NCBI GenBank assembly: GCA_963713655.1
Contig: CAVQMT010000044.1
Coordinates: forward strand, 6,686 to 70,685
Direction: 5' to 3'
From: an uncultured Acidobacteriota bacterium
Lineage (GTDB): Bacteria; Acidobacteriota; Vicinamibacteria; Vicinamibacterales; UBA2999
DNA: 64,000 nucleotides
The notes under the pieces are model-generated. The model had not been told where the DNA came from. It was given only the letters and a program-made list of their open reading frames with translations, and ran no database searches. The position numbers were made by a program, and so were the translations under genes. Of the stretch, positions 515-57,818 are shown one piece after another. Position 1 is the first letter of the stretch. Each line of letters begins with the position of its first letter.

Positions 515-534
515 TCGGAGGAGTATTCTTCAGG

Positions 535-561
535 CCGGAAGCCGAAGCCGGAAGCCAGAGG
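535..561. repeat. Imperfect tandem CCGGAAG-type 6-7-mers directly upstream of the hydrolase RBS
   Basis: Reads CCGGAAG CCGAAG CCGGAAG CCAGAGG, followed by the GAGGAGG RBS region and ATG 572. Confidence 0.7.
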
Positions 562-2866: not shown

Positions 2867-2901
2867 GGGCTCCGGGCTCCAGGCTACAGGCTCCGGGCCC
2901 G
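2867..2901. repeat. Tandem heptamers GGGCTCC GGGCTCC AGGCTAC AGGCTCC GGGCCCG immediately after the hydrolase stop
   Basis: Direct reading shows five 7-nt units. AGGCTCC is the reverse complement of the GGAGCCT unit at 44981-45015. Confidence 0.85.
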
Positions 2902-11302: not shown

Positions 11303-11353
11303 TACTGCAGTCCGACTGCAGTCCCGCATAGCGGGACTGTAGCCGACTGTAGC
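11303..11353 (+). terminator. Long imperfect hairpin after the cytochrome c gene (possible terminator or REP-like element)
   Basis: The core stem CAGTCCCGC-ATA-GCGGGACTG lies at 11319-11339. It extends outward through ACTGCAGTCC / GGACTGTAG repeats. A weak T-run (ATTTTGA) follows about 20 nt later. Confidence 0.4.
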
Positions 11354-11372
11354 CCGTAGCCTGATTTTGAGT

Positions 11373-14178: not shown

Positions 14179-15176
14179 TTACCGAGCGGTGGTGGATCGT
14201 GACAGGCAGCGTGCCGCCTTGTTCGACGGGTCTGTCGGATCTGGATTCTGGCCGCGTCCCCGGGTCTCCCTGTACGCCTGGTGGCACGCGGCGCAGGCGT
14301 CGGAGAGGTCACCGGTGGCGTCCGACACGGCCTCCTGGCTCCTGGTCTGCGAGGCCTGGTAGGTTTTTCGCGCCACGGCGATCATCTCTTCGGTCAGCTT
14401 GATCCACAAGGCATCGGTGACTGGCGCCAGCCGCCCGTTCTCGCAGCGGATCCCCGGCGTCAGCATCAGGGGCGACGCGTCGGCCAACGCGATCGCGGCG
14501 TTGTCCACCAGCTGCCATCCGCCGTAGATGCCCGCTCCCCAGTCCACGAATGAGAAGCCGCCAGTCTGGCCGCCGCTGCCGCGGGGTCCGGCTTCGGAGC
14601 GGGCGCGCCGGGATCGTGTGTCTGCACCGTGAAGATCAGGTTCGAGTTCGGGAAGAAGATGCCGCGCATCAGCTGCGCCATGTTGCCGAGCGGCGGAAAG
14701 GCGCGAACCGCCGCGGCGGTTGCGGGCGCGGACGGCTGACTGGCCGGGCCGGGTGGCCAGCCGATCGCCGCAAGCGCGGCCTGCGCCGGGGCAAGCTCGG
14801 TGCGACCGGCGGGGAATCCGCCGAGCTTCAGGATGTGCGCCAGCACGTCGGACGTCTGGGCGGGCGACAGCGTCCCCTGGGCGTCGGCGGGCATCGTGTT
14901 GCGGATCTTGCCGGCGAGCGCGGAGAGCGGTTGTACGCGCCAGGTGCCGCGGAAGGCGTCGCCGACGAGCGGCGGCCCCTGCAGGCCTTCCGCCATCTTG
15001 CCGTGACACGACGCGCACTGCTTCGCATACAGCGCCTGACCGCGCGAGGCCTGGGCCTCGGTGAACACGCCGTCCTGCACGGTGCGCCGGACTGCGCCTG
15101 CACCGCGGTCAGCCATGACAGCGCTCATGGCCAGTATCTGGCCGGTCACTCGACCCGGGCTCGCGACGGACGGCAA
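14179..15176 (-). CDS. Two-domain c-type cytochrome (class I-like N-domain plus a C-terminal domain with a late CxxCH, as in cytochrome c'/c556)
   Basis: CASCHG lies in the N-terminal half and DACAACHQAYRE near the C-terminus. Frame hops occur near 15100 and 14540. It lies directly downstream of the PQQ dehydrogenase. Confidence 0.65.
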
Positions 15177-15193
15177 CGACCCTCATGGCCGGA

Positions 15194-16938
15194 CTAGTTC
15201 AGCGCGAACACGAACAGGTAGCTGGAGTTCTGCAGCTTGTCAAAGTTCACCGGGTGCAGGTGGCGGCCGCTGGCCTGCACCGCGAGAAACTGCTTCGGCC
15301 CGATCGCGTAGGTGACCGGCGCGCCCTTGAGCGGCGTGCCGACGTTGAAGCGCCACAGCTCTTCCAGCGTCTCGTCGTTGTAGGCCACGACCCAGCCGTC
15401 CTGCAGCGCCGTGAACAGCAGGCCGCCGGCGGTCACGGTCGCGCCCGAGCGGATCTCGATGTCGGTGACGGCCTTGGCCACCACCTTGTGGTTCACGGTG
15501 TCGAACGCCGTCACCGCGCCGTAGTAGAGGTCGCTGTTGAACTGGCGGCGCTCGCTGTTCTTGTTGTCGATGCCGCCGTCCTTGCCCAGCGACGCCACCG
15601 CGGCGCCCGTTCTGGCGTGAAGCATCCTTCGGTGCCGACGCCGTAGGCGATGCCCTTGACCGGGTTGTAGGCCATCGGCTGATGCGCCACGCCGCCGTGC
15701 CAGGTCGGGCAGCTGCGCTTGCGGCCGTCGCCGCGCAGCGCGCGCGCCTCGGGGTTGTAGATCTGCACGTCGAGCTTGGGGTTGTAGTCGAGCGGCTTGC
15801 CGCTCTCGGGGTGGATGCCCTTGGTCCAGTTCAGGTCGTTGACGTACTTCTCGGCCTTGATGAAGCGGCCGTTGGTGCGATCCACCGAGTAGAAGAAGCC
15901 GTTGCGGGCGAAGTGGCCGACCACCTTGCGATCGATGCCCTGGATCTTCTGGTCGTAGAGCATGAACACGCCGGCCTCGTCGAAGTCCCACGAGTCGTTG
16001 GGCGTGTACTGGAAGTGCCACTTCATCTTGCCGGTGGCGACGTCGAGCGCGACCACCGAGTTGGTGTAGAGGTTGTCGCCAGGGCGGAACTGCGGGTCGT
16101 AGATCGGGAACGGGTTGCCGGTGCCGAAGATGTAGAGGTTCTGCGCCGCGTCGTAGGAGCCCGTCTGCCAGATGCCGCCGCCGCCGGTCTTCCACGCGTT
16201 GTGGTCGTCCTTCCAGGTCTCGCTGCCGGGATCGCCCGGCTTCGGCACGGTGTACCAGCGCCACAGCTCGTTGCCGGTGTTGACGTCGAGGGCCGCCACC
16301 CAGCCGCGCGTGCCGCCGTCGCCGGCGCCGTTCTGCACCAGCACCTTGCCGTCGGCGACGATGGGCGCGGTCAGGAAGCGCTCCTGGTTGCCGAACTCGT
16401 TCTTGGTCATGATCTTCTTGTCCCAGAGGATCTCGCCGTTGTCGCGGTTGATCGCGATCACGCGGCCATCGGGCAGGTTGGCCAGGACCTTGTTCTCCCA
16501 CAGCGCGATGCCGCGGGTGCGCGAGGTGTTGCCTTCGTGCGCGACGCCGGGGTCGGCCACCCACACGAACGAGCCGCGCTGCGGGTTGCGCGCGTCGATC
16601 TTGTAGACCGTGCCCCAGCCGTCGCTGGTGTACATGAAGCCGTTGTCGATGAGCGGGTTGACTTCGCTCTCGGGCCCGTTCTGCCCGACGTCCTGCATGC
16701 CGCCGAGCGCCATCGCCCACACCATCCGCAGATCCTTCACGTTGGTGCGGTTGATCTGGGTCAGGCGGGAATAGCGCAGCGACCCGTAGTCGCCGTTCAT
16801 CAGCAGCCAGTTCTGCGGCTCGTTCTGCGCGTTGATCAGCCGGTCCTTGTTGACCGTCAGCGAATACTGGGCGGACGTGGTGACCATCAGCGCGGTCGCC
16901 GCGACGAGAGCCGTCAGGAGGGCGGTCTTGAGGCGCAT
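15194..16938 (-). CDS. PQQ-dependent dehydrogenase, methanol/ethanol family, with D-x-D (lanthanide-type) motif
   Basis: ATG 16938 with a GAGAGGA RBS and a signal peptide (ALLTALVAATALMVTTSAQ). Eight-bladed propeller W-motifs are present (ELWRW, MKWHFQ, EELWRF). DSWDFDE is encoded at 15976-15996. One frame hop occurs near 15.62 kb. Confidence 0.85.
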
Positions 16939-17004: not shown

Positions 17005-17938
17005 ATGAAATTCACAATTCACAATTCAGAATTCAGAAACTGCAGCCGGAACTGCTTCTCTGGCCGCCTTTTGCGGGCGAGCCTGCCCCTGGCAGCCGCC
17101 TTGTTCCTGCTGGCGTCGCCGGGGCTGGCGCAGACGTCGAACAAGGCCGCTCCGGTGGTGGTCAGCCATTTCCACCTGAACGTGACCAGCATCGACGCTC
17201 ACAAGAAGTTCTGGGTCGATACCCTGGGTGGCACTGCGCTCAGGCTGAATGGTCTCGACGCCGTCCAGTTCCCCGACATCTATATCTTTCTCCGCCAGCA
17301 GGCGCCCACGGGCCCGACGCGCGGCACGGCGTTCGATCACATCGGGTTCGCCGTGCCGGACGTGCCGGCGTTGACGACTCGGGTGGTGGCCGCGGGATAT
17401 CAGCTGACCACCGGCCGCGAGCCGGCGCCGGGGCAGGAGGCCGCGGCGGCGACCGGCACCCAGGCGCCGTACGGCCGCTTTTCGTATCTGCTGGGCCCTG
17501 ACGGCGCGAAGGTGGAATTGGTGACGGCAGCCGGCGCCGAGCGCGCCTCCGATCGCGTATCACCACATTCACTTCATCAACAAGCAGTACGTCGAGATGC
17601 AGCAGTGGTACATGAAAGTGTTCGACGCCACGCTGCGCCCGGGTCAGACCGACTTCTTCATCGGCGCGGACCTGCCCGGCGTCGGCTACAGCCTCAACTT
17701 CTTCCGCTGGGAAGGGGATCAAGCCGTGACCCACGCCACCACGGCGGGACGAGTGATGGACCGTGCCGGGTTCGACGTGCGGAACCTCGAAGACTTCTGC
17801 AAGCGCCTGGAGGCCAAGGGCGTGGCGCTGACGGTGCCGTACCGGCGCCGTCCCGACTTCGGGAATCTGGGCACCGCCGTGATCACCGATCCGTGGGGCA
17901 CCGTGATCGAGTTGACCGAAGGGCTCGCGGGCCGTTGA
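17005..17938 (+). CDS. Secreted two-domain VOC (glyoxalase/bleomycin-resistance/dioxygenase) family protein
   Basis: It has a signal peptide (LPLAAALFLLASPGLAQT). HFHLNV...FDHIGFAVPD and HHIHF...DRAGFDV are paired VOC modules. One frame hop occurs near 17555. An alternative start is TTG 17071. Confidence 0.65.
17009..17036. repeat. AT-rich tandem heptamers AATTCAC x2 then AATTCAG x2
   Basis: Direct reading. They lie between the divergent PQQ-dehydrogenase and VOC genes, or inside the first 11 codons of the VOC gene if ATG 17005 is used. Confidence 0.9.
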
Positions 17939-19840: not shown

Positions 19841-21209
19841 ATGCGGTGCCGGGTGTCTGCCGTGGCGGGCGCGGTGCTGGCGGTGGGTATCCTCGCCGCC
19901 GTGCCGGTCGGCCATGCCGAACAAGCCGCGCAGGGCGCGGGCCCTGCCGGCCGGGCCCAAGGCGCCGGGCGCGGGCCGGTGCGGCCCGAGTGCGTCAATC
20001 CGGCGCTGCCGGCCGCGGAGTGCAACATCCCGCCGGGGATCAACTGGCCCGATCCGCCGCTCGGCGCGGGGCCGTTCCTGCTCGAAACCGCGGTGCCCGC
20101 AGCACCGCAACATCCGCGTCGTGGTGGTGGCGACCGGGCTGAACCAGCCCTGGTCCATGACCTGGCTGCCCGACGGCACCATGCTCGTCACCGAGCGTGC
20201 CGGGCGGCTGCGCGTGATCCGCAACGGCGTGCTGGATCCGAACCCGGTGGCGGGCGTGCCTGAGGTGCGCGCGCAGGGTCTGCAGGGCCTGATGGACGTG
20301 GTGCTGCACCCGCGCTTCGCGGAGAACCGCTACGTCTATCTGTCCTATCACAAGCCCTTCCCGGTTCCCGGCGCCACCACCCCGCAGGGCGCACCGCTCG
20401 TCGAGGGCGAGACCGTGCATCGCGCGCGGCACCTGGAACGGCACGGCGCTCACCGACGTGCGCGACATCTTTCGATCGGGTGCCACGCGGACCGAGTCGT
20501 CGCGCATCGGCTTCGCGCGCGACGGCATGCTGCACATGACCATCAGCGCGTCGGGCACCGGTCCCGACGTGATGCGCTCCGCGGATCCCAACGACTACGC
20601 CGGCAAGACCGTGCGCCTGCGCGACGACGGCACCATCCCGCCCGACAACCCGTTCGTGGGCAAGGCCGGCTACAAGCCGGGGATCTACACGCTCGGGTCA
20701 TCGCAACGGCCATTCGATGGCGCTCAACCCCGAGACGGGCGAGTTCTGGGTCACGGAGCAGGGGCCCAACGGCGGCGACGAGATCAACGTGCTGAAGCCG
20801 GGCGCGAACTACGGCTGGCCCTACGCCAGCCACGGGCGCAGCTACATGGGGCCGCGCATCTCGCCGACGCCGGGCCGCGACGGCACCGAGCAGCCGGTGG
20901 TCGTCTGGGTGCCGTCGATCGCCGCGGCCGGCGGCGACCTTTTACACCGGCGACAAGTTCCCGGGCTGGCAGCGCAACTTCTTCGTCGGCGGCCTGCGCG
21001 AGGGCGAGACGCCGCGCACCGGCCAGATGCAGCGCATCGAGTTCAACGAGCGCTGGGAGGAGATCCGGCGCGAGCCGCTGCTGCGCGAGCTGAAGCAGCG
21101 CATCCGCGACGTGCGGCAAGGACCCGATGGGCTGATCTACGCGCTGACGAGCGAGAACCCGGGTGCCGTGCTGCGCCTCGAGCCGGCAGAGGCACCGGCC
21201 GCGCGTTGA
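19841..21209 (+). CDS. PQQ-dependent sugar dehydrogenase (soluble aldose/sorbosone dehydrogenase family); at least 4 apparent frameshifts
   Basis: GGAGG RBS 6 nt upstream of ATG 19841 and a signal peptide. Contains GLNQPWSMTWLPDGTMLVTERAGRLRVI, GLMDVVLHP, GHRNGHSMALNPETGEFWVTEQGPNGGDEINVLKPGANYGWP and PDGLIYALT. Confidence 0.8.
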
Positions 21210-21212
21210 CCA

Positions 21213-21247
21213 CGACTAACGACTAACGACCAACGACCAACGAGCAC
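21213..21247. repeat. Tandem heptamers CGACTAA x2, CGACCAA x2, CGAGCAC between the sugar dehydrogenase stop and the pirin start
   Basis: Direct reading. Its reverse complement begins with the same TAGTTGGT motif as the array starting at 51116. Confidence 0.9.
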
Positions 21248-21252
21248 CAACT

Positions 21253-21960
21253 ATGCTGACCTTGCGCAAAGCCGACGACCGCGGTCACACCGACCTCGGG
21301 TGGCTCAGCAGCTTCCACACCTTCTCGTTCGGCGGCTATACCGACCCGAACCACATGGGCTTCCGCTCGCTGCGGGTGCTCAACGACGACCGCGTGGCGC
21401 CGGGCAAGGGCTTCGGCGCCCACGGCCACCGCGACATGGAGATCCTGTCCTACGTGATCACCGGCAAGCTGGCGCACAAGGACAGCATGGGCGAGCAGCA
21501 CGAGCTGGGGCCGAACGAGGTGCAGGCGATGTCGGCCGGCACCGGCGTCATCCACAGCGAGTTCAACGGCGTGAACGACGCCGAGACGCATTTCCTGCAG
21601 ATCTGGATCGTGCCCAACGCGAAGGGGCTCAAGCCGTCGTATCAGCAGTTCGAGTACGCGGAGGCCGAGAAGCGCGGCGTGCTGCGGCTGATGGCGGGGC
21701 CCGATCGCGGCACCACGCCGCCGGCGGCGTTCATCAACCAGGACGCGCGGATGTACGCCTCCGTGCTCGCGGACGGGCAGACGCTCGAGCTGCCGGTGGC
21801 GCCCGGCCGCTACGCCTGGGTGCACTGCGTGCAGGGCGCCATCGACGTCAACGGCGTCGCGATGCACGGCGGCGACGGCCTGGCCGTCAGCGACGAGCGG
21901 GCGCTGACGATTCGCGGCGGCGCCGGCGGCGGCGAGCTGCTGCTGTTCGACCTCGCGTGA
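21253..21960 (+). CDS. Pirin family protein
   Basis: Intact 235-aa ORF. Contains RGHTDLGWLSSFHTFSF, FGAHGHRDMEILSYV and MSAGTGVIHSEFN (cupin metal-site pattern). Confidence 0.9.
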   Translation: MLTLRKADDRGHTDLGWLSSFHTFSFGGYTDPNHMGFRSLRVLNDDRVAPGKGFGAHGHRDMEILSYVITGKLAHKDSMGEQHELGPNEVQAMSAGTGVIHSEFNGVNDAETHFLQIWIVPNAKGLKPSYQQFEYAEAEKRGVLRLMAGPDRGTTPPAAFINQDARMYASVLADGQTLELPVAPGRYAWVHCVQGAIDVNGVAMHGGDGLAVSDERALTIRGGAGGGELLLFDLA

Positions 21961-21999
21961 GGGTCCTTAGGACCAGGCACCAAGGACCAGCCCAAGACC

Positions 22000-22433
22000 A
22001 TGGCCGACCCCGTCAACGTCCTGGTGGTGTTCTACTCGCGCTACGGCGCGCGCCGAGCGCCTGGCGCTCGCGGTGGGCGTCGGCGCCATCGAAGCCGAGG
22101 CCAACATCCGGCTGCGCCGGCTGCCCGACGACGCCAGCGCCGAGACGATCCAGTGCCGACGCCGCGTGGCGCGAGTCGCTCGACCGCATGAACCGCGACT
22201 ACGTGGCGCCGCGGCCCGCCGATCCGGTGTGGGCCGACGTGATCGTGCTGGCCACCCCCGCGGAATCCTCGCGCGAGGTAGAGGCCTACGTGGCGACGCT
22301 GCCCGGGCTGGGCGTCATGACCGGCAAGCTGGCGGCGCCGCTCACGCCGGGCGAGGACGGCGCGTGCGACGAGGTGTTCGTGGCGGCCGCCCGCGCCGGT
22401 CTGATCTCGGTTCCCGCGGACGCCCGCTTCTGA
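22000..22433 (+). CDS. Flavodoxin-like-fold protein (WrbA/NAD(P)H:quinone oxidoreductase-like); 2 apparent frameshifts
   Basis: VNVLVVFYSRYG N-terminus, then ADVIVLATPAESS and LAAPLTPG. Frame hops occur near 22050 and 22165. Confidence 0.55.
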
Positions 22434-25051: not shown

Positions 25052-25958
25052 GGAACCTGCTTCGCGCGACCGTTCTGGCCGTCGTGGCGCTGAGCGCCAC
25101 GACCGGCCGGGCGCAGGAGGCGAGCCTGGCGGCCGCCCGGGAGCTGTATGGGGCGGCTGAGTACGCCAGCGCCCTGAAGATGCTGACCACGCTGCCGGGC
25201 GCCGACACGTCGAAGGCCGACCTCCAGACCATCGACCTCTATCGTGCGCTGTGCCTGCTGGCGCTCGGCAACACCACCGAGGCCAACAAGGTGATCGAGT
25301 CGATGCTCATGCTCGACCCGCTCTACCGCCCCGACACCACCGACCTGCCGCCGCGCGTGCGCACTGCCTTCGCCGACGCCCGCAAGCGGATGCTGCCGGC
25401 GCTGGTCCAGCAGCGCTACCTGGTGGCGCGCGCCGCCTTCGAGGCCAAGAACTACGCGGCCGCGGCCGTCGGCTTCCAGGTCGTGCTGAGCGGCCTGTCG
25501 GACCCGGATCTCGGCATCGCCGAGCGCGCAGCCGCCGCTCTCCGATCTGAAGGTGCTGGCGTCGGGCTTCCACGATCTGGCTTCCAAGGCGAGCGCGCCC
25601 GTCGAGACGCCGGTCGAGGCGCCGCCGCCGGCGCCTCCCGTCCAGGAGCGGCCCGCCGGACCCGTCGATCTACGGCCCCGAGGATGTGAACGTGTCGCCG
25701 CCGCAGACAGTGCGGCAGATAGTGCCCGCGTTCCCGGGGCGCGTGCTGCTGACCGGGGCGGCGACGATGGACCTCATCATCAACGAGAGCGGGTCGGTGG
25801 ATTCGGCCACGATCGTGACCTCGCTGAACCCGCAGTACGATCGGATGGCGTTGAACGCGGCGCGGAGCTGGCAGTACAAGCCGGCGACGCTGAACGGCAC
25901 GCCGGTGAAGTACCGCAAGCGGCTCCAGTTGACGGTGGTTCCGGGCCAGACCCGGTAG
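25048..25958 (+). CDS. Signal peptide, TPR-like helical region, Pro-rich spacer and a TonB C-terminal-like domain; 2 apparent frameshifts
   Basis: The start ATG overlaps the upstream stop (ATGA). The Pro-rich spacer is PVETPVEAPPPAPPVQERP. The C-terminus PPQTVRQIVPAFPG...VDSATIV...ALNAARSWQYKPATLNGTPV is TonB_C-like. Confidence 0.6.
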
Positions 25959-25966
25959 AAGGGGGC

Positions 25967-26009
25967 GCCAGGCCCCAGGCTCCTAGGCTTTGGGCTTTGG
26001 GCCTGGGCT
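25967..26009. repeat. Degenerate heptamer array CCAGGCC CCAGGCT CCTAGGCT TTGGGCT TTGGGCC TGGGCTC at a convergent gene junction
   Basis: Direct reading. The right part encodes the SPFH C-terminal tail SSPGPKPKA on the minus strand. Confidence 0.75.
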
Positions 26010-42068: not shown

Positions 42069-43963
42069 ATGCACGCCCGAACCATGCGCCTGGCCCTGAC
42101 CGGTGTTCTCTTTCTGGTGACTACGATGCTGCTGACGGCACAGGAACGCGACCGCGCCAAGGTGCCCGATACCTTCAAGTGGAACCTGGCGGACATCTAT
42201 CCGGACCAGCCGGCGTGGCGCGCCCGGAAGGACGACAATCGCGGCCGAGCTGCCGTCGCTGCGCAAGTTCGAAGGGCAGCTCGGCTCGTCGGCCGCGAAG
42301 CTGGCCGACGCGCTGGAGCTGATGTCGCGGCTCGACAAGGAGCTGTCGCGGCTCTACGTCTACGCCAGCATGCTGTCCGACCAGGACACGCGCGTGTCCG
42401 AGCCGCAGGGCATGCAGCAGGAGATGCAGCAGCTGTACGCCAACTTCGCGCCCAGGCGGCGTTCATCGAGCCCGAGGTGCTGCGCGTCGGCAGCGACGAC
42501 GATCGAGGCGTTCCTGACGTCGGAGCCGCGGCTCAAGCCCGTACGCGTTCTACCTGCGCGACATCGTGCGCCGCGCCGCCCACACGCTGAGCGATGCCGG
42601 AAGAGAAGCTCCTGGCCGACGCCGGTCCGCTGGCGGGATCGGCGTCGAACATCTACACCATCCTCGCCAACGCCGACTTCCCGTATCCGACGCATCACGC
42701 TCGGCCGACGGCAAGACCGTCAAGGTCGACCAGGCCGGCTACTCGGCGCTGCGCACCTCGCCGAACCGCGAGGATCGCAAGGCGGCGATGTCCGCGTTCT
42801 TCGGCGCGCTCGGCGGCTTCGGCCGCACCTTCGGCACGACGATGAACTCGAGCGTGCAGAAGTCGCTGTTCTACGCCCGCGCCCGGAAGTACGGCTCGAA
42901 CCTCGAGGCCGCGCTCGACGGGCCCGAACATCCCGGTGTCGGTCTACATGCGCCTGATCGAGGGCGTGAACCAGCAGCCTGCCGACGTTCCACCGCTACC
43001 TGAAGCTGCGCAAGCGGATGATGGGGCTGACCGACGACCTGCACTACTACGACCTGTACGCGCCGCTCGTCGCCGACGGTGGACCTGCGATACACGCCGG
43101 AAGCAGGCGCAGGCGCTGGTCGTGTCGTCGATGGCGCCGCTCGGCGCCGACTACACGGGCGTGCTGCAGCGCGCGTTCAAGGAGCGCTGGCTCGACTGGT
43201 ATCCCACCGAAGGCAAGGTGTCGGGCGCCTACTCGAACGGCGGCGCCTACGACGTGCACCCGTACATGCTGCTGAACTACCTCGGGCAGTACAACGACGT
43301 CAGCACGCTGGCCCACGAGCTGGGCCACACGATGCACAGCTACTACTCGAACAAGACGCAGCCCTACGCCACGGCGGCCTACGCGACGTTCGTCGCCGAG
43401 GTGGCGTCCACGTTCAACGAGGCGCTGCTGGTCGATCACATGCTGAAGCAGATCAAGGACACGCCGACGCGGCTGTCGCTCCTCGGCAACTATCTCGAGG
43501 GCATCAAGTCCACCGTGTTCCGCCAGACGCAGTTCGCCGAGTTCGAGCTGCGGATGCACGAGATGGCCCAGGCCGGGCAGCCGATCACCGGTGAGGCGCT
43601 GGCCAAGCTGTATCTCGACATCACGCGCCGGTACTACGGCCACGACCAGCGGCGTGTGCGTCGTGGACGACTACATCGCCCACGAGTGGAGCTACATCCC
43701 GCACTTCTACCGCGACTTCTACGTGTTCCAGTACGCCACGTCGTTCACCGCCGCCGAGGCGCTGTCGGCGAAGGTGCTGGCGGGCGACATCAAGGCGCGC
43801 GACGCGCTACCTGACGTTCCTGGGCTCGGGCGGCTCGAAGTATCCGATCGACCTGCTGAAGGACGCCGGCGTGGACATGACCACCGACGAGCCGCTGGAT
43901 CTCACGATCAGGCGGATGAACGAGGTGATGGACGAGATCGAACGGCTACTGCCAAAGCAGTAG
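42069..43963 (+). CDS. Secreted oligoendopeptidase F-family (M3B) metallopeptidase; about 9 apparent frameshifts
   Basis: It has a signal peptide (LALTGVLFLVTTMLLTAQ). Contains FKWNLADIY, LSRLYVYASMLSDQD and STLAHELGHTMHSYYS (HExxH), plus FAEFELRMHE and WSYIPHFYRDFYVFQYATSF. It ends at TAG 43961-43963. Confidence 0.85.
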
Positions 43964-44047
43964 CCGCTCGATCGTCAGGCTAGAGTCCGGCCTTCGGTCG
44001 GCCCAGCGCGTCCGGCTGAAGCCTGGAGCCCTGCCGAGCCCGTAGCC

Positions 44048-44963
44048 CTACAAGATATTCTTCCCCAGCGCCGACAGCGCCAGCTCCGTGCCGAGCTCGG
44101 CGGTCGTGTTGCGAATGTCGAGCGTGGGGTTCACCTCCACCAGGTCCAGCGCGACCAGGAGCTTCGAGTCGGCCACCAGCTCCATCAGCAGGTGCGCCTC
44201 GCGGTAGCCCAGCCCGCCGCGCACCGGCGTGCCGACGCCCGGTGCGATCGACGGATCGCAGGCGTCGAGATCGAACGAGACGTGGATGCCGCCGGTCCCG
44301 GCTGACGCCGGCGGCGATCGCGCGCTCGGCCACGCGCGCCATCCCGTCGCGATCGATGTCCTTCATCGTGAAGACGTGCACGCCGGCGGCGCGAATCTGA
44401 TCCTTCTCGCGGTCGTCCAGGTTGCGGATGCCGACGAGCACGGTGTGCTGGGCGGACACCGACGGCGCCGTTGCCGATCGCCGCGAGCTCGCGCGGCTCC
44501 TGGCCGAGCAGCGCCGCCAGCGGCATGCCGTGCACGTTGCCGCTCTCGGACGTGTCGGGGGTGTTCATGTCGCCGTGCGCGTCCACCCAGATGAGGCCGA
44601 GCGGGTAGCGCCGACCCTTGGCTCACCCAGTCGGCGCTGGCCGCGACCGAACCAGCGGCCAGGCTGTGATCGCCGCCGAGCACCACCGGGAGGGCGCCGG
44701 CGTCGAGCGCCTCGAGGCGGCAGCCGTGCACGCGGCGGCAGACCTCGGCGATGTCGTCGACGTACTTCTTGCGCTCGTCGCCCGAGGCCGCCCGACTCGC
44801 GCATGCGGCGCCGGCACGTTGCCGCGGTCCACGACGCGTGCGTCCGAGCACGCGCGATCTGTTCCGCCAGGCCGGCGATGCGGAACGCCGACGGGCCCAT
44901 GTCCACGCCGCGCCGCCCGCCGCCGAGGTCCAGCGGCACGCCGATGAGATGGACCGGCTTCAT
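44048..44963 (-). CDS. rocF: Arginase; about 4 apparent frameshifts
   Basis: Contains [75 protein letters not shown] and LDLVEVNP. Confidence 0.85.
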
Positions 44964-44975
44964 GGCGCGCTCATT

Positions 44976-46409
44976 CTAGCGAGGCCTGGAGCCTGGAGCC
45001 CGGAGCCTGGAGCCTGATGCCGCGCCGAGCCACTCGTGGATGCGCGTGGCCGTGGCCCGGCCGTCGAGCAATGCAGTCGGGGATGCCGATGGCGCCGAAT
45101 CCGCTGCCGGCGCCGAAGAGACCCGGGATGCGCCTCGAGGCGCTGCGTCGATGGCCCGCACCCGCGTGCCGATGCCCGACGACGTACTGCGGGCTCTGCC
45201 GCGTCCAGCGCGCGACGCGGGTCAGCACCGGGGCGCCCGGTGATGCCGAGCACGTCCCCCAGCTCCTGCGTCGCCAGATCTGTCAGCCCCTCGTCGTCGT
45301 GCTGGTCGAGGCGCTGGGGGTCGCGGCCGCCGCCGAAGAAGGCGCGCAGCAGCACGTGCCCGGGCGGCGCGCGGCCCGGCCACTTCGACGTGACCCATGT
45401 GGCGGCCAGCAGCGCCCGGCCTTCGGCCCGCGGGACCACGAAGCCCGTGCCCCGCATCGGGTGCGCGACCTGTTCCGCGCGATAGCCGAGGGCCACCGTG
45501 GCGGTGGACGCATAGTCCACGCCGTCGCACAGCGCCGCCAGCGGCTGGTCGAGGGCGCGAAGCAGCGCGGCGGCCTCGTAGGACGGCACCGCCAGCAGCA
45601 CCGAGCCCGCGCGAACGTGCCGGCCGCCGGCGCTCCACGACGTAGCCGCCGGCGCCGCGCCGCACGCTCGTCGCACGGCAGCCCTGCACCACCGTGCCCG
45701 GCGGCAGCGCGCGCCACCAGCGCCTCCACCAGCTCGCCGACGCCGCCGGGCAGCGACACGAACGCGCCCTCGAGCCGAGGGTGTCGGCTTCAGTCGCGCG
45801 GAAGGCCCGCAGCAGGCTGCCATGCTGACGCTCCGCATCCACCAGACGCGGAAACAGCGGGCGGACCGACAGCCGATCGACGTCGCCGGCGTGGATGCCG
45901 GCGAGCAGCGGCTCGGCCAGGTAGTCCACGGCCTCGCGGCCGAACCGGCGGCCCACGAACGCCGGCGATCGACTCGTCGTCGTCCGTCGTGCCAGCGTCG
46001 CGCGCGCGGGATCAACGCTTCGGCCGCCATCCGCGCCTTGCCCAGCGGCGTGAAGAGCGACGACATCGCCAGCGCCGCGCAGCGACACGGGAAAGCCGAG
46101 GAACGAGCCCTCGGGCAGCGGATGCAGCCGGCCGTCGCGCAGCACGTAGGCCGTGCGCGGCTCGAGCGTCGACGATCAGCTGCGGCTCGAGGCCCAGCTC
46201 GCGGCAGAGCGCGATGGCGGCCGGCTTCTGCGACCAGGAACGAGTCGGGCCCGCAATCCACGACCCAGCCGTCGAAGCGTTCGGTTTGCATCACGCCGCC
46301 GGGCGTCGGCCGGCGTCGAGCACGCGCACCGTGCGGCCGCGCCGCTGCAGGTCGTAGGCAGCCGCCAGGCCGGCGATGCCGCCGCCGATGACGACGACGT
46401 CGACGGACA
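44976..46409 (-). CDS. hemY: Protoporphyrinogen/coproporphyrinogen III oxidase (HemY type, FAD-dependent); about 6 apparent frameshifts
   Basis: MSVDVVVIGGGIAGLAAAYDL is the GxGxxG motif. Also contains LAEPLLAGIHAGD, VLLAVPSYEAAALL, GFVVPRAEG, ATWVTSKWPGRAP and GIPDCIA. Confidence 0.8.
44981..45015. repeat. Five tandem heptamers GAGGCCT GGAGCCT GGAGCCC GGAGCCT GGAGCCT
   Basis: Direct reading. The array lies between the arginase start (44963) and the hemY 3' end. On the minus strand it encodes the hemY tail GSRLRAPGSRPR. Confidence 0.9.
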
Positions 46410-47939: not shown

Positions 47940-49310
47940 TTGAGCCCCATCCTCGTGCGGCCCGTTCGCGAGCAGCTCGAGCACGATCGGGTGATCCGCC
48001 TGCTGCAGGCGAAGTACAAGAGGAAGTTCGACGTCGCCATCAATCCCGGGCACGAACAGACGGCTCCGGTCGGCCCGCCGCCGTCGCCCTGGTATCCCGA
48101 CCTGGTCCTGCACTCCACCGAGCGCGGCCGCCGCCTGGCCGGCATCGTCGAGGTGGAGACCGCCGAGTCGGTGAACAACCTCGAGGCGATGTCGCAGTGG
48201 GCGGCGTTTGCCAAGCAGCGGGCGGAGTTCCACCTCTACGTTCCGGCGTCGTCGATCGACGTGACCCGGCGGCTGTGCGCCGACATCGGCATCAACGTCA
48301 CCGAGATCTGGGCCTATCACGCGGTCGGCGACCAGCTGCGGTTCGTCCTGGTGCAGCGCGCCGCCGGCGCCCCGAAGCCGCCAAGCCGGCGCCCGAAGAC
48401 CGCCGGCCAAGCCGGCCAAGGCCGCCGCGGCCAAGCCGGCTGCCAGCGGCGCGAAGCGGCCGGCGAGCCGCCAAGCCGCCCGCGTCAAGGTCGCAGCGGC
48501 GAAGAACGGCCCGGCGAAGAACGGTGCCGCGAAGCAGCAGCGCCGCCAAGAACAGCGGCGCCGAAGGCCGTCCGTCAAGAAAGCGGCCGCCCAAGCAGGC
48601 CGGCGCCGCAAGAAGGCGGCGCCGAAGCCCGCCGTCCAAGCCAGCCAGGCGCCGCTAGCCCCGTGCCGTTCCTGAGGGTCATCCGCGACAAGCGCGGGTA
48701 CGAGACCACGTACCTGATGCACTGGTTCAGCGAGGGGGGCCGGCAGCGCTCGCGCATCCTGTACGCCTTTCGCGGCCCGTCGCTGGCACGCGTCGGACGG
48801 GTGCCGCTCGAACCTGCCGTCATGCGGCAGATCGCGGCCAGCTTTCCGGAGGTGGCGTTCGACTGGAAGGCCGTCGTCGCCGAACGTCAGGTGATCGAGT
48901 CGGCCCCCGAGATCAGGCGCCGGCGTCCACGCCGCGAGGACGAGCCCGTCCACGCCGCCGGGCCGAAGCCGCGCCGCCGCCGGTTGTGGCCGCAGCTCCT
49001 CCCCCCGAGCGGCCTCGGCAGATTCCCTCGGCGCTGCCGCCGGGCACCGACGAGGAGCGGATGGCATTTCTGGCCGAGTGGTATCCGCTGGTGCGCGAGC
49101 GGGTAGAGCGCCGCACCACCGACGAGGTGCGGCGGCAGGCGCTGCTGAGCCTGGCCGAACGCCTCGAACCCGGCGGCGTGGGGCGAGGGTGGCGCGTCGC
49201 CGGACCACTTCGCTGCGGCGGCTGAAGCGCTGGAACGCCTGGCGCGCGTGCTGACGCGCCGCCGCCGCCGCAGCAACCGGCCGCCGCAGGCGCCGAGCCC
49301 CGCGAGCTAG
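47940..49310 (+). CDS. Hypothetical protein: endonuclease-like N-domain, Lys/Ala/Pro-rich histone-H1-like middle and a conserved-looking C-domain; about 5 apparent frameshifts
   Basis: The N-domain contains YPDLVLHS...[10 protein letters not shown]. The middle region at 48360-48660 reads [20 protein letters not shown] / [14 protein letters not shown] / KKAAPKPAV in shifting frames. The C-domain begins [22 protein letters not shown]. It ends at TAG 49308-49310. Confidence 0.5.
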
Positions 49311-49806: not shown

Positions 49807-51118
49807 ATGCGCAACACGAACCGGTGCATCTTTGCTGGCTTGTTCGCATGCCTGCTGGCGGCGCTGATCACCACCGCCCATGGGCCGCTGGCCGCCCAGG
49901 CGCCACAGGCGCCGGCGCCGCAGCAGCCGGCGCCGGCGCCGGCCACGCCGCCGGCCGGGCAGACGCCGACGTTCCGCGTCAGCGTCGACCTGATCACCAC
50001 CGATCTCATCGTCCGCGACAGCCGCGACCAGTTCATCGCCGACCTGAAGCCGGGCGAGATCGAGGTCTACGAAGACGGCGTCAAGCAGGACATCGCGTCG
50101 CTGGAGCTGATTCACGGCGGGCGCGCCTACAGCGTGCAGGCCCCGCCGCCGGCGCCGGTGCAGGAAGGCATCATCCTGCCGCGCAACCGGCCCACCAACG
50201 ACACCGCCGGGCGCGTGTTCCTGCTGTTCATCGACGACCTGCACCTGGGCTTCCGCGAGACGCCGCGCACGCGCGACCTGCTGAAGCGGATGCTGAAGAG
50301 CCTGATTCACGACGGCGACATGTTCGGCATCGTGACCACGGGCACCTCGTCGATCTCGCAGCAGCTGACCTACGACCGCCAGGTGCTCGACTCGGCGATC
50401 TCGCGCATCACCGGCAACTCGCTGAAGCCGTCGGAAATCATCCAGGGCGGGCAGGGTCCGAACGGCCCGACCGAGCTGCGACACCGCGCGCACGTCGCGT
50501 TTTCGACGGCCTACGATCTGATGCGCAACCTCGAGAAGCTGCAGAACCGCCGCAAGGCCGTGCTCTACATCAGCAGCGGCTACGACTTCAATCCGTTCGA
50601 GCAGGGCCGCGTGGACGAGATGGCCAAGCGGATGCACGTGGAAAACGCCAACGAGCTGCAAAGCGATCCGTTCTTCCGCAACCAGCAGAGCCAGCAGATG
50701 CTGGCCGAATCGGATCTCGATTCGCGAGCTGGCCGAGCTGACGCGCGCCGCCAACCGCGCCAACGCCACCTTCTACACGATCGACCCGCGCGGGCTGGTG
50801 GCCGGGCAGGATCTCGACGAAGAGGTGCCGATCAAGGACTGGAACGAGTACATCCGCGAGACGCAGAACAGCCTGCGCGTGCTGGCCGAGGAAACCGGCG
50901 GCATCGCGGTGGTGAACCAGAACGACTTCGACAAGGCGCTCAAGCGCATCGACGCCGAGACCAGCGACTACTACGTCCTGGGCTACTACTCGAGCAACCC
51001 CGACCCGCTGAAGCGCACGCGCAAGATCGAGGTGAAGATCTTGAACCGGCCGAACGTCAATACGTTCTTCCGGTCGTCGTACTCGCTCCGTCCGCCTCCG
51101 CCGCCGGATCAGCGCTAG
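49807..51118 (+). CDS. Secreted VWA-domain protein of the acidobacterial VWFA-related type
   Basis: It has a signal peptide. Contains [61 protein letters not shown] and [11 protein letters not shown]...KIEVKI. One frame hop occurs near 50720. Confidence 0.8.
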
Positions 51119-51215
51119 TTGGTCGTTCGTCGTTTGTAGTTGGTCGTTCGGACTGCATTACGCGACCGAATCGCGACGTCCGAGCTAACGACCCACGACT
51201 ACGAGCCGCTACCAA
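51116..51215. repeat. Composite heptamer-phased repeat: TAGTTGG TCGTTCG TCGTTTG TAGTTGG TCGTTCG, then a central segment, then CTAACGA CCCACGA CTACGAG in inverse orientation
   Basis: Direct reading. The left arm is related to the reverse complement of the array at 21213-21247. It lies at the convergent VWA/LysR junction. Confidence 0.7.
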
Positions 51216-52125
51216 CCAGGCTTGACGGCGGCTTCCAGACGAGGCCGCAGTCCCTCCAGCACGCTCATCACTTCGCTCACCATCCGCGGCAGCCGGCTCA
51301 TCTTCGGATAGACCCAGCCGGTCTGGCGGAACAGCTGTGGCCGGCGATGCGGCTGCAGGCCAGCTGCTTGCTCTTGCACGTCGGCCGCGGCGGCCTGCCA
51401 CGGGATGATGCTGATGCCGAGGCCGCTGCGCACCATCGCCTTGATGATCTCGACGTTCTCGGTCTCCATCACGACGTGGGCTTCGACGCCCTGGCGGGTG
51501 AAGAACTCGTCCACCAGCCGGCGGGTGATCGATCCGGTCTCGAACAGGATGAACGGCTGCCTGGTTCAGGTCGGCGGGCGTGATCTGGCGGCGCTTGGCC
51601 AGCGGGTGGGTCGGGTAGGTCACGAGCAGCAGCTCCTCGGTGAGGATCGGCACCGACACCAGGTCGCTGGCCTCCACCGGCAGCGTGACCAGGCCCAGGT
51701 CGCCGACGCCCTGGCGCAGCATCGCAATCGAGCGCTCGGCGCTGCCGACGGTGACCTTCAGATCGAGGTTGGGGTGGATGCGCCGCAGCTCGGCGATGAG
51801 CGACGGGAAACACGTAGAGGCAGACCGTCATCCCGCCGACCAGGCGGATCGTGCCGCGCAGCGTTTCCTGCGTATCGTTGATGGCGGCCACCGTGTCCTG
51901 GAGATCCTGGAACACGCGGTGGCTCAGCTGCAGCAGTGCGGCCCCGGCCGGCGTGATCCGGACCCGCCGGCCGACGCGGTGGAAGACCGCCTCGCCGAGC
52001 TCGTCCTCGAGCAGCAGGATCTGGCGGCTGATCGCCGACTGCGAGACGTGCAGCTTGTTGCCGGCCGCGGTGAACGAGCCGGTGTCGGCGATGGCGCGGA
52101 TGATCTCGAGCTGCCGGAGATCCAT
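51209..52125 (-). CDS. LysR-family transcriptional regulator; about 3 apparent frameshifts
   Basis: MDLRQLEIIRAIADTGSFTAAGNKLHVSQSAISRQILLLEDELG is the HTH. It is followed by a periplasmic-binding-protein-like effector domain (LVTLPV, FILFETGS, GLGISIIP). Confidence 0.8.
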
Positions 52126-55387: not shown

Positions 55388-56260
55388 TTACCCCGCCAGA
55401 TACCCGCGCTGGATCGCTGCCGCGTCGAGCGGCAGCGTGGCCACGTTGTCGAAGGTCGGAAACACCGGCCGCGACGCGTGGCGCGAATCGAACGCCTTCA
55501 GGTACCGCCGGCACTGGTCGCAGCCGAACACCCGATATTGCCCGTCCGGCGTCGCGAACGACGACACGCGCGCGCGATCGTCGTTGCGGCAGAACGGGCA
55601 CGCCGTGCCGTCGAACCCCCACTGCAGGTGGCAATGGCTGCACACCAGGCGGCGCGCGCTGGCCGAGACGATCACCGCGAAATCCGGTTCGGCGCCGCAC
55701 AGCGGACAGTAGCCGTGTGTCCACATGCTGAGCTCGGGCCGGGGCTGAAACGCCTCGGCGCATCGGGAGAGGAACGGGCGCATCGCCAGCGCCAGCACCT
55801 GGTCCAGCGTTTCGTCTTCCGGCGTCGCGCTGGCGGCCGGCGCGCCGTTGTGGCGATCGGCGGTGCGGGCATACCAGGCGGCCGCCGCCGACAGCAGATC
55901 CTGGCTGCGGCCGAGCGCGGCGGCGCGCGCGTAATCGTCGGGGTCCAGGGCACCGCAGCGGTGCAGCACTTCGGCGGTCTGGCGGATCGTGAGCCGCAGG
56001 TCGCTGACGTCGATTGGGATCTGCTCGAAGCGCAGGACCGGACGCCCCTCGCGTACGTGCCGCGCGAAGCCCGGCCCGTCGATGTCGATCCACGGCAGCG
56101 ACACGCGCAAGCGGACGCGATGCTGCAGGTCGAGCAGCGCCAGGTGCAGGTCGGCGGCGTCGGCCAATTCGGGCTGGCTGGTGCGGAGCGCCCTGAGGTG
56201 GGACAGTTCGCCCGCTTCGTTGCGGCCAGACGGGTCGGAGCGCGTGGGCACCCTCGGCAT
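55388..56260 (-). CDS. fdhE: FdhE-like protein (formate dehydrogenase accessory protein family)
   Basis: Intact 290-aa ORF with four Cys pairs (CPLCG, CSHCH, CPFC, CDQC) in the spacing typical of FdhE. Confidence 0.75.
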   Translation of the reverse strand: MPRVPTRSDPSGRNEAGELSHLRALRTSQPELADAADLHLALLDLQHRVRLRVSLPWIDIDGPGFARHVREGRPVLRFEQIPIDVSDLRLTIRQTAEVLHRCGALDPDDYARAAALGRSQDLLSAAAAWYARTADRHNGAPAASATPEDETLDQVLALAMRPFLSRCAEAFQPRPELSMWTHGYCPLCGAEPDFAVIVSASARRLVCSHCHLQWGFDGTACPFCRNDDRARVSSFATPDGQYRVFGCDQCRRYLKAFDSRHASRPVFPTFDNVATLPLDAAAIQRGYLAG

Positions 56261-56299
56261 AATACAGCAGAGCTTGGAATTAATACAGCAGAGCTGGGA
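56259..56299. repeat. Two 21-nt direct repeats (ATAATACAGCAGAGCTTGGA / TTAATACAGCAGAGCTGGGA) in the fdhE-glgA divergent spacer
   Basis: AATACAGCAGAGCT occurs at 56261-56274 and 56282-56295, a period of 21 nt (3 x 7). Confidence 0.85.
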
Positions 56300-56333
56300 C
56301 TGGCCCGGCCCGACCCGCGGATAATAAGGTGGA

Positions 56334-57818
56334 TTGTCGATGCGGATCCTGATGGTGGCCTCGGAAGTCGCCCCGTTCGCGAAAACCGGGGGATTGGCCG
56401 ACGTTCTGGGGGCCCTGCCGCAGGCGCTGGCGCGCCTGGGGCACGATGTCGAGGTCGTGATGCCGCGTTACCGCGGGGTCACCGCCGGCGACCGCGTCGG
56501 GCGCATCACGGTGCGATTGGGGGACCGCCAGCTGGACGCCGGCGTCTTTGCGGTCTCCGCCGCCGGCGTGCGCATCGTCTTCATCGACCAGCCCAGCTAT
56601 TTCGACCGCGAGGGCATCTACGGCGAGGGCGGCCAGGACTATGCCGACAGCCCCGAGCGGTTCGCCTTTCTGGGCCATGCGGCGCTGCGCTGGTCGATGC
56701 TGACCGGCGCGCGCTACGACGTGGTGCACGGGCACGACTGGCAGGCGGGCGCGCTGGCGGCCCTCATCGGTACACCCGGCGCCGCGCACGCGCTGGCGCG
56801 CGTGCCGATGGTGTTCACCATCCACAACCTGGCGTACCAAGGGCTGTTCGACCGGTCGTGGCTGCCGGGACTGGGGTTCAGTCCGACGCTGATGAGCGTG
56901 GACGGGATGGAGTACTGGAACCAGGCCAGCTACCTCAAGGCCGGCATCATGTTCAGCCGGGTCATCACCACGGTCAGCCCGCGGTATGCGGCCGAAATCC
57001 AGACCCCGGAATACGGGTTCGGGTTCGACGGCATCCTGCGCAGCCGGGCCGACCGTCTGGTCGGCATTTTGAACGGGATCGACTACGATCAATGGAACCC
57101 CGCCAGCGACCCGCATCTGCCTGTCCCGTTCGACGCGGGAAACCTGTCGGGAAAGGTGGCCGCCAAGCGACACGCCCTGGAATCGTTCGGCATCCAACCG
57201 AATGAGGCCGCCATGGGCCGGCCGCTGGTCGGCCTGGTGTCGCGGCTGGTGGACCAGAAGGGGTTTGATCTCGTGGCGGACGCGTCCGAAGAGCTGCTGG
57301 GCCTGGATGCTACGTTCGTGCTGCTGGGGACCGGCGACGCGCGCTACGAGACCCTGTGGCACGACCTGTCAGCCGCCCACCCCGACCGTGTCGGCGCGCG
57401 CCTCGGGTTCGACGAGGGGCTGGCGCACGTCATCGAGGGCGGCAGCGACATGTTCCTGATGCCGTCGCGATTCGAGCCGTGCGGCCTCAACCAGATGTAC
57501 AGCCTGCGCTACGGCACGGTGCCGGTGGTGCGGGCCACCGGCGGGCTGGCCGACACGGTGCGCGACTTCGATCCGCAGACGGGCGAGGGCACCGGATTCA
57601 CCTTCGAGGAGTACTCGTCGACGGCGATGGTCGGTGCGCTGACGCGCGCGATCGACACCTATCGGCGCGCCGACGTGTGGCGCGCCATGCAGCTGGCCGG
57701 GATGCGCGAGGATCACTCGTGGACCACGTCGGCGCACAAATACGTGTCCGTCTACGAATGGGCGCAGGAACTGCAGCACCAACGCGGCGGGCCGGCAGGG
57801 AAGGCCGTGCGCGCGTAA
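56334..57818 (+). CDS. glgA: Glycogen synthase (ADP-glucose type)
   Basis: Intact 494-aa ORF. Contains [36 protein letters not shown] and [13 protein letters not shown]. Confidence 0.9.

Follow-up and report, generated by a model that had tools for sequence, protein, structure and literature searches.

Heptanucleotide repeats are the most abundant long simple-sequence repeats (SSRs) in most of the bacterial genomes surveyed by Mrazek, Guo and Shah (2007), as that survey is summarised in two later papers (PMC4692102, PMC4679880); according to the same summaries, the repeats lie mostly outside coding regions and polymerase slippage was proposed as their origin. Among individual families, the GGGAATC repeats of Xanthomonas and the GGGGAYT repeats of Nostoc occur mostly between the same genes in related species, with wide variation in length and sequence (Rehm et al. 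2015, PMC4692102), and the TAACTGA direct repeats, known from marine Beggiatoaceae as well as cyanobacteria and some Bacteroidetes, are concentrated ahead of start codons in Beggiatoaceae (MacGregor 2015, PMC4679880); a Nostoc study speculates on transcriptional and translational roles of heptamers without resolving them (bioRxiv 10.1101/2022.06.06.494920). The preference of bacterial SSRs for seven nucleotides has lacked an explanation since it was noted in 2007, and the repeats have no established function. Here, we describe arrays of tandem heptamers at gene boundaries in a 64-kb stretch of DNA (hereafter the window), among them an array of five GGAGCCY units (the main array) at the junction of the genes for arginase and HemY, together with their counterparts on related contigs. 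Comparable dispersed heptamer arrays upstream of start codons are formed by the STRR heptamers of cyanobacteria, and SSRs located in promoters or 5' coding ends of host-adapted pathogens constitute phase-variable contingency loci, in which genes are turned on or off by frameshift or by a change in promoter spacing.

We consider it likely that the arrays are heptanucleotide SSRs, that is, microsatellite-like or variable-number-tandem-repeat (VNTR)-like long SSRs (LSSRs) that are resized by slippage throughout the lineage, and that the direct arrays have no dedicated function. The arrays are specific for a period of seven and restricted to intergenic DNA, change by whole units, keep their length where they are translated and have a precursor in a proto-repeat; a tandem arrangement beyond chance, an excess of period 7, exclusion from coding DNA and whole-unit differences between strains are the traits that they have in common with heptanucleotide LSSRs. 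The genomes closest to the window are Acidobacteriota metagenome-assembled genomes (MAGs), its named protein matches are from Vicinamibacterales, and the source organism, judged from its DNA, appears to be a Vicinamibacterales-like acidobacterium from soil.

Period-7 arrays in the spacers of the window and its relatives

The original prediction described five GGAGCCY units between arginase and hemY, a reverse-complement array after a hydrolase stop and degenerate relatives near 25967-26009 and 44021-44047, and the unit family does recur at these four loci (Table 1). The five units of the main array are present exactly as described, and Tandem Repeats Finder (TRF) agrees, with period 7, 4.7 copies and 92% matches. 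The reverse-complement array is found directly after the hydrolase stop, with a TRF period of 7; like the main array, it reads RGGCTCC in the sense direction, and it lies in a co-directional spacer, 45 nt upstream of the ATG (2947) of a DUF1800 gene. At the two degenerate loci, GGAGCCY dimers with at most two mismatches are matched at 25963-25983 and 44018-44048, and TRF reports a period-7 GGCTTTG repeat at 25986-26002, at the junction of the SPFH and TonB_C genes. Such dimers number 14 in the window against 5.5 expected and are confined to the four loci and two stray sites, while the single GGAGCCY word is rarer than expected (16 copies against 29.8, nine of the 16 lying in the four loci); the unusual feature is the tandem 7-nt arrangement and not the word itself. 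Of the spacers that had also been called heptamer-phased, the one at 535-561 is confirmed by TRF and the one at 21969-21996 belongs to a spacer (21963-21999) with clean arrays in relatives. Further arrays, at 17009-17038, 21212-21251, 51118-51150 and 51186-51215, had gone unlisted. The GGAGCCY family is thus real, but the framing of the pattern around it was too narrow, as many unit families take part in what is a general property of the lineage rather than a GGAGCCY-specific element.

The census of the lineage covers about 140 kb, namely the window and about 75 kb from close relatives. In the window, period 7 accounts for 3-4 arrays against 0-0.1 in dinucleotide-preserving shuffles, and periods 8 and 10-14 for none; TRF gives 4.7-5.3 copies at period 7. 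The close-lineage loci (74.7 kb) hold 19 arrays of period 7 and four of period 14, with 0-1 for each of the remaining periods between 4 and 15. Enrichment over shuffled intergenic sequence, which had been set as a check, was measured in seven related contigs with clean gene calls, comprising 35 spacers of at least 15 nt (5,086 nt in total), against 200 shuffles that keep the base composition of each spacer. A period-7 run is present in 12 of the 35 spacers, where 0.04 would be expected and the maximum over the 200 shuffles is one; no run at periods 4-6 or 8-12 is found in any of them. In the coding DNA of the relatives (54 kb), period-7 runs are absent from all 868 pieces of 60 nt, although this same DNA does hold in-frame runs of period 6, 9 and 12. 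All strong arrays of the gene-called relatives are intergenic, the exceptions at a looser threshold being the HemY tail discussed below and one short low-complexity GGGCGGC run.

By type of spacer, period-7 runs occupy 9 of 23 co-directional, 3 of 5 convergent and 0 of 7 divergent spacers, and stop-to-start spacers between co-directional genes are as frequently filled by arrays as convergent junctions are; the avoidance of divergent spacers is not significant (0/7 vs 12/28, Fisher p = 0.07, orthologous spacers being counted repeatedly). An array typically starts 0-2 nt after a stop codon and ends 1-13 nt before the next start, and often makes up, in effect, the whole spacer.

The habit appears to extend beyond the close lineage. 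A set of 80 loci taken from many phyla holds 15 period-7 arrays, of which 11 fall within the 274 kb of Acidobacteriota DNA and four within the other 869 kb (binomial p = 7.6e-5); for the frame-keeping periods 6, 9 and 12, the trend is opposite. Long arrays of unrelated units, such as ACYAACC (ten copies), GCTARTT (13) and TCTGCAT (five), are present in Acidobacteriota MAGs that are less closely related, Pyrinomonadaceae and one bearing the label gp4 among them, and the period-7 habit, as far as these sequences indicate, appears phylum-wide rather than limited to Vicinamibacterales. As for individual families, AACGACY occurs at three or more unrelated loci (the spacer of a pirin-family gene, the junction of the arginase and peptidase M3 genes, and 51118-51215) and GGAGCCY/GGCTCYR at five or more (the four window loci, L002 and L099), and neither AACGACY nor GGAGCCY-type arrays are found in about 1.1 Mb of other taxa, the sample of the lineage itself being small.

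Whole-unit changes between strains and a translated array

The most direct view of how the arrays change comes from orthologous spacers. The pirin-family gene (21253-21960) is flanked by arrays on both sides, and its homologues, 89-98% identical at the protein level, are found on many metagenome contigs, although an exact look-up with the protein of the window itself gave no match, as would be expected if the window is absent in this form from the collection searched. The copy numbers at the two spacers of this gene and at the arginase/M3 junction (Table 1) make the purely non-coding arrays hypervariable loci that change in whole-unit steps between close strains, next to genes of 95-100% identity. 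At the arginase/M3 junction, L106 has a spacer of 140 nt and L100 one of 84 nt, exactly eight units less, in strains with 98.5% identical arginase DNA and identical arginase protein. In the more distant L002, with a pirin-family protein 75% identical, both flanking spacers again hold arrays, of other units (CAGAGCC and GGAGCCN). L081, the single metagenome contig that matches exact coding anchors chosen around the main array, has a span 7 nt shorter and resembled a further length variant; in alignment it is unrelated beyond the anchors, and the match was set aside as due to chance.

An earlier stage is visible at 17009-17038. There, the start of the same glyoxalase-family gene in L096 reads ATG-AAA-TTC-AGA-ATT-GAC, a two-unit proto-repeat (AATTCAG AATTGAC), and the window differs from L096 (17005-17110 vs 4840-4900) by a net in-frame insertion of 54 nt that includes the AATTCAS array; the comparison with L096 captures the birth of an array from a proto-repeat. 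The array follows ATG 17005, or lies in the 5' untranslated region if the start is the TTG near 17068. With ATG 17005 as the start, the array would sit in the n-region of a signal peptide; the gene upstream is a divergent PQQ-dehydrogenase gene.

Gene ends in the window cannot be taken at face value. Aligned with five independent related contigs, it has extra single bases at sites where the relatives mutually agree (examples in Table 1), and several frames are consequently needed to read each of the genes for arginase, HemY and HemE, as well as the one that follows the pirin-family gene; sequencing or assembly error, for instance in an unpolished long-read assembly, is the most likely cause of these insertions, rather than pseudogenes. 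Because of them, the ends of open reading frames (ORFs) are unsafe if the window is read alone, and each end read there was compared with relatives. A gene caller based on GC content at third codon positions left large gaps owing to the pervasive frameshifts, and the genes flanking the arrays were set by hand, from Pfam and from relatives; tblastx synteny was too noisy and was replaced by blastn and direct reading of the spacers. P0165 and P0014 are represented by gene coordinates and protein tails only. The error-rich state of the window is also what would speak for the arrays being assembly or sequencing artefacts, an alternative that the original prediction had allowed for and that can practically be dismissed: arrays recur at these positions in short-read assemblies made independently from other samples and by other sources (JGI, ENA), and the errors of the window are single-base insertions, not 7-nt duplications.

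The comparison with relatives bears out the claim that the main array is read as a protein tail. On the sense (-) strand, it reads TC AGGCTCC AGGCTCC GGGCTCC AGGCTCC AGGCCTC GC TAG and supplies the final 12 residues of HemY (GSRLRAPGSRPR), whose C-terminus is ...RIHEWLGAAS-GSRLRAPGSRPR; the TAG stop lies at 44978-44976, and the ATG of arginase (44963-44961) follows 12 nt downstream in the same frame. The corresponding tail is found in the clean relatives L099 (...GSRLRASGSRPE; in a longer reading, ...RIHEWLGPVTGSRLRASGSRPE), P0165 (...GSRLPAPGAPPE; longer reading, ...RIHEWLGPDTGSRLPAPGAPPE) and L100 (...GHQLRATGTGHG; longer reading for L100-L106, ...RIHGWLGTGPGHQLRATGTGHG), each ending at a stop codon. 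In all four lineages (window, L099, P0165 and L100-L106), exactly 15 residues follow WLG and the heptamer-phased stretch is 35 nt long, though increasingly degenerate in L099 and L100; several of the differences between the window and L099 fall at synonymous positions or at the AGG/CGG position of arginine codons. In other Vicinamibacterales, HemY mostly ends 17-22 residues past the DCIADGR motif; here the distance is 26. Judging from these tails, an array was absorbed into the ORF in this sub-clade and has changed since then by substitution only, at constant length. The accompanying expectation, that changes in copy number would alter the C-terminus, is not borne out at this translated array, for which no such change is seen among the four lineages.

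The other array thought to be translated, at the end of the SPFH gene, is a weaker case. The final five or so codons do overlap a repeat of GCCCAAA, but it has only 2.4 units and the effect is minor: the window tail (...DASSPGPKPKA) is about three residues longer than ...DASAAPKK in L097 and ...DSAAAPPEK in L089. In L096, the Band_7 (SPFH) call at 14384-15562 is 392 aa long vs 309 aa in L097, overlaps its convergent neighbour and has a C-terminal translation unrelated to the SPFH tails of the window, L097 and L089; judging from this translation, the L096 contig is probably frameshifted near the 3' end of the gene.

A short proto-repeat located beside a gene boundary would grow or shrink by 7 nt through slipped-strand mispairing during replication or repair. 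As each 7-nt step shifts the reading frame, expansions would persist only where the frame is irrelevant, i.e., in the stop-to-start spacers of operons, at convergent gene ends and at the extreme ends of ORFs; arrays would often fill an entire spacer because expansions survive only at such frame-indifferent places. Where the unit is free of stop codons, translation can continue into the array and turn it into a C-terminal tail, as happened in HemY; from then on its length is constant and change is limited to substitution. Any effects of the arrays would be side effects: cistrons spaced at variable distances, leaders that are CA-rich and unstructured, and hairpins at inverted pairs. We infer that the arrays are generated and resized by slippage and kept at gene boundaries by selection against frameshifts, most direct arrays probably being near-neutral filler.

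Table 1. Heptamer arrays of the window, copy numbers at orthologous spacers, arrays in distant MAGs and single-base insertions of the window
Feature	Source	Position	Strand	Units or context
Main array	window	44981-45015	- (sense RGGCTCC); + strand GGAGCCY	GAGGCCT GGAGCCT GGAGCCC GGAGCCT GGAGCCT; from sequence and TRF
RGGCTCC array	window	2867-2901	+	GGGCTCC GGGCTCC AGGCTAC AGGCTCC GGGCCCG; directly 3' of alpha/beta-hydrolase TAG stop (2864-2866)
Degenerate RGGCYYY/GGCTTTG heptamers	window	25963-26009		convergent junction of TonB_C (+, stop 25956-25958) and SPFH/Band_7 (-, stop 25985-25983)
Degenerate RGGCTNC heptamers	window	44018-44047	-	directly after arginase stop (44050-44048), convergent with peptidase M3 gene
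GCCGGAA array	window	534-561 (TRF 534-556)	+	GCCGGAA GCCGAA GCCGGAA GCCAGAGGAGG; spacer from + strand ORF stop (512-514) to ATG 572
AATTCAS array	window	17009-17038 (TRF 17009-17035)	+	AATTCAC AATTCAC AATTCAG AATTCAG AA; 5' end of glyoxalase-family gene
ACGACYA array	window	21212-21251 (TRF 21208-21243, ACGACYA)	+	ACGACTA ACGACTA ACGACCA ACGACCA ACGAGCACCAACT; spacer from GSDH-family TGA (21207-21209) to pirin-family ATG (21253)
Degenerate GGACCAG GCACCAA GGACCAG array	window	21961-22000	+	spacer from pirin-family stop (21958-21960) to next ATG (22001)
Inverted pair of arrays	window	51118-51215	inverted pair	TTGGTCG TTCGTCG TTTGTAG TTGGTCG ... ACGACCC ACGACTA CGAGCC; between + strand ORF (stop 51116-51118) and convergent LysR-type gene
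Upstream ACGACYA array	L096			0 units
Upstream ACGACYA array	L097			about 2.5 units
Upstream ACGACYA array	L084			3 units
Upstream ACGACYA array	window, L082, L085			4 units
Upstream ACGACYA array	L087-L095			6 units
Upstream ACGACYA array	L098			8 units
Downstream GGACCAA/GCACCAA array	L084			absent; 20-nt spacer
Downstream GGACCAA/GCACCAA array	L097			absent; genes overlap
Downstream GGACCAA/GCACCAA array	window, L098			about 4 units
Downstream GGACCAA/GCACCAA array	L085			about 5 units
Downstream GGACCAA/GCACCAA array	L096			about 8 units
Downstream GGACCAA/GCACCAA array	L082			7 units and an inverted GGTCCTT block
Downstream GGACCAA/GCACCAA array	L087-L095			about 15 units
Arginase/M3 junction	window			degenerate RGGCTNC units
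Arginase/M3 junction	L099			GGCTACR x5 and inverted GCCTGGA x2.5
Arginase/M3 junction	L100-L105			(TCATCGG)8, then 3-4 AACGACY units
Arginase/M3 junction	L106			16 TCATCRG units
Distant-MAG arrays	L001	9117-9185, 4638-4674
Distant-MAG array	L012	8322-8416
Distant-MAG arrays	L018	3046-3079, 9888-9983
Distant-MAG array	L021	4300-4562
Distant-MAG array	L045	1689-2015
Single-base insertions (examples)	window	19817, 19826, 20098, 20419, 20694-20697, 20936-20937, 22047-22048, 22154-22155, 22411-22413		relative to related contigs

The inverted pair is composed of arrays at 51118-51150 (GTTCGTC/TTGGTCG by TRF) and 51186-51215. The array at 21961-22000 has a small GGTCC-TTA-GGACC inverted repeat at its 5' end, and the gene starting at 22001 has no Pfam match.

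Folding of the arrays and possible functions

Compared with shuffled sequences, the main array folds with a z-score of about +0.7 (+0.65) on both strands, its L099 orthologue with +0.8 and the 2867 array with -0.3; direct arrays thus have no more structure than shuffled DNA. Those rich in C and A hardly fold at all, with -4 kcal/mol over 56 nt and -1.6 kcal/mol over 64 nt. Inverted pairs of arrays, which are also present in relatives (L082 1253-1342, L099 4221-4328, and L100/L106), do fold beyond shuffles, with z = -2.5/-2.7 at 51112-51222 of the window, -5.5 in L082, -2.8 at the L099 junction and -3.3 in L106, and only such pairs give hairpins; the pair at 51112-51222 forms a long imperfect hairpin, and no U-tract is evident 3' of it. 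This folding of inverted pairs at convergent and inter-gene junctions is what favours a role of the arrays as transcription terminators or as DNA or RNA structural elements at gene ends, a terminator role having been raised in the original prediction. We regard this role as very unlikely, because direct arrays, including both GGAGCCY ones, fold like shuffles, the arrays in 43800-45300 (main array and arginase 3' junction) coincide with no terminator-like stem-loop and U-tract, the main array forms part of an ORF and is followed 12 nt later by the next start of what looks like an operon, and runs of three G that could support a stable G-quadruplex are lacking. A G-quadruplex had been considered separately and was rejected: the consensus units GGAGCCY, ACGACYA, GGACCAA, AATTCAS and TCATCGG reach GG at most, and only a few GGGCTCC variant units reach GGG.

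Several points weigh against the interpretation of the arrays as slippage-driven SSRs. Slippage alone gives no reason for units of 7 over 4, 5, 8 or 10. The families AACGACY and GGAGCCY/GGCTCYR recur at unrelated loci and do so in this lineage only. The presence in L002 of arrays with different units at both pirin-family spacers exceeds what a low birth rate would produce and could mean selection for an array. In many cases, only 1-13 nt separate an array from a start codon that lacks a clear Shine-Dalgarno sequence, which is compatible with a translational role. Finally, the census is drawn from the 140 kb or so of the lineage, and the spacer test counts orthologous spacers more than once.

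An alternative is that the arrays are functional intercistronic elements of the mRNA, serving as unstructured, largely Shine-Dalgarno-less leaders or standby sites whose length tunes downstream initiation or coupling, with copy number acting as a heritable expression dial. The co-directional arrays, which span the distance from a stop to just before the next ATG, and the unfolded state of the CA-rich ones fit such a role, as does the recurrence in L002, and translational roles have been proposed for the TAACTGA repeats (PMC4679880) and the Nostoc heptamers (bioRxiv 10.1101/2022.06.06.494920). However, the array is dispensable, since close strains lack it (L084 with its 20-nt spacer, L097 with overlapping genes); convergent junctions, which have no start downstream, carry arrays just as commonly; GC-rich arrays of the GGAGCCY type are not unstructured; and neither unit sequence nor sense orientation is consistent across loci. 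Translational tuning therefore seems unlikely, and it is the choice of a 7-nt unit and the recurring unit families, together with the recurrence at both pirin-family spacers in L002, that keep it alive. A bolder version, which we hold to be quite unlikely, is that the arrays are actively maintained, lineage-specific intercistronic elements: a few families (AACGACY, GGAGCCY/GGCTCYR, GGACCAA) would be seeded at gene boundaries by a dedicated mechanism or by selection and replace Shine-Dalgarno leaders, copy number being a population-level dial of translation or coupling of downstream genes. If true, a copy-number dial in a free-living soil bacterium would represent contingency-like tuning outside pathogens.

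The recurrence of AACGACY and GGAGCCY/GGCTCYR at unrelated loci of this lineage would also be accounted for if the arrays were sites for a sequence-specific protein, iteron- or operator-like on DNA or cold-shock-protein-like on RNA (binding of CspB to heptamer repeats has been noted, PMC4679880), or remnants of a small mobile element spreading heptamer families. This is highly improbable given that at least six unrelated unit families coexist, that the unit at one and the same spacer differs between relatives, that copy number is unconstrained, from 0 to 16, that terminal inverted repeats, target-site duplications and associated genes are missing, and that none of the seven divergent (promoter) spacers of the relatives carries an array. 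A mobile repeat of the repetitive extragenic palindrome or miniature inverted-repeat transposable element type was likewise rejected, since unit and length differ between orthologous sites and there are no conserved flanks. A stop-codon 'insulator', in which three units place a stop in every frame, was discarded as well because it is not general: ACGACTA and CCGATGA behave in this way, GGAGCCY, GGACCAA and AACGACC do not.

Other repeats of the window do not follow the 7-nt period. Inverted tandem 11-mers at 11304-11362 (ACTGCAGTCCG ACTGCAGTCCC GC ATA GC GGGACTGTAGCC GACTGTAGCC, then TGATTTTGAG) form a palindromic hairpin just 3' of a + strand ORF (stop 11285-11287), and this element, made of tandem repeats with a period other than 7, looks like a terminator. 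The divergent region between ORFs 55388-56260 (-) and 56334-57818 (+) contains a direct repeat of 21 bp, near-perfect, at 56258-56300 (TAATACAGCAGAGCTTGGAAT TAATACAGCAGAGCTGGGACT), which may be an operator or regulator-binding site. Overlapping repeats of 9, 15, 16 and 22 nt at 48340-48650 (ORF 47940-49106, +) encode a Lys/Ala/Pro-rich low-complexity stretch resembling histone-H1-like or AlgP-like basic repeat proteins.

Comparison with known repeat systems

The lineage constitutes a compact natural experiment: the same spacers hold from 0 to 16 units in many environmental strains, a captured protein tail is frozen in length, and the birth of an array from a two-unit proto-repeat is visible. 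The question of slippage versus function is directly testable here because the copy-number series, the frozen HemY array and the birth from a proto-repeat are found together. In practical terms, the arrays are strain-resolving VNTR markers for the abundant, hard-to-culture Vicinamibacterales of soil, and, when MAGs are annotated, they give rise to wrongly called starts and ends of genes.

Compared with the LSSRs of the 2007 survey, as it is summarised in PMC4692102 and PMC4679880, the arrays are alike in consisting of tandem 7-nt units that are over-represented relative to other lengths, largely non-coding and attributed to slippage; they differ in their host, as the survey highlighted Burkholderia, Xanthomonas, cyanobacteria and actinobacteria, and no report of heptanucleotide repeats in Acidobacteriota or Vicinamibacterales was found in the literature searched. 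With the Xanthomonas and Nostoc repeats (PMC4692102), they share the organisation in intergenic heptamer arrays, some of them inverted pairs between convergent genes. While those repeats are G-rich, form G-quadruplexes and are dominated by one family per genome, the arrays described here have no runs of three G in their consensus units and several unrelated families coexist. The TAACTGA repeats (PMC4679880) are similar in lying just upstream of start codons, in the recurrence of one unit at many loci and in a translational role that is suggested only; they are, however, AT-rich, bear stop codons and belong to low-GC genomes, whereas the present genome has about 70% GC, its arrays consist of units rich in GC or in CA, and convergent gene ends carry them just as commonly.

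By comparison with contingency loci, the likeness is limited to copy-number change driven by slippage: the arrays are located after stops, between cistrons or in the last codons, where a 7-nt step is not inactivating. A phase-variation contingency locus was rejected for the same placement, the array at 17009-17038 alone being near a 5' end, where the net insertion is in frame. The repeat class itself is known; what is new here is the strain-level series of copy numbers at orthologous spacers, together with an array that is translated and frozen in length.

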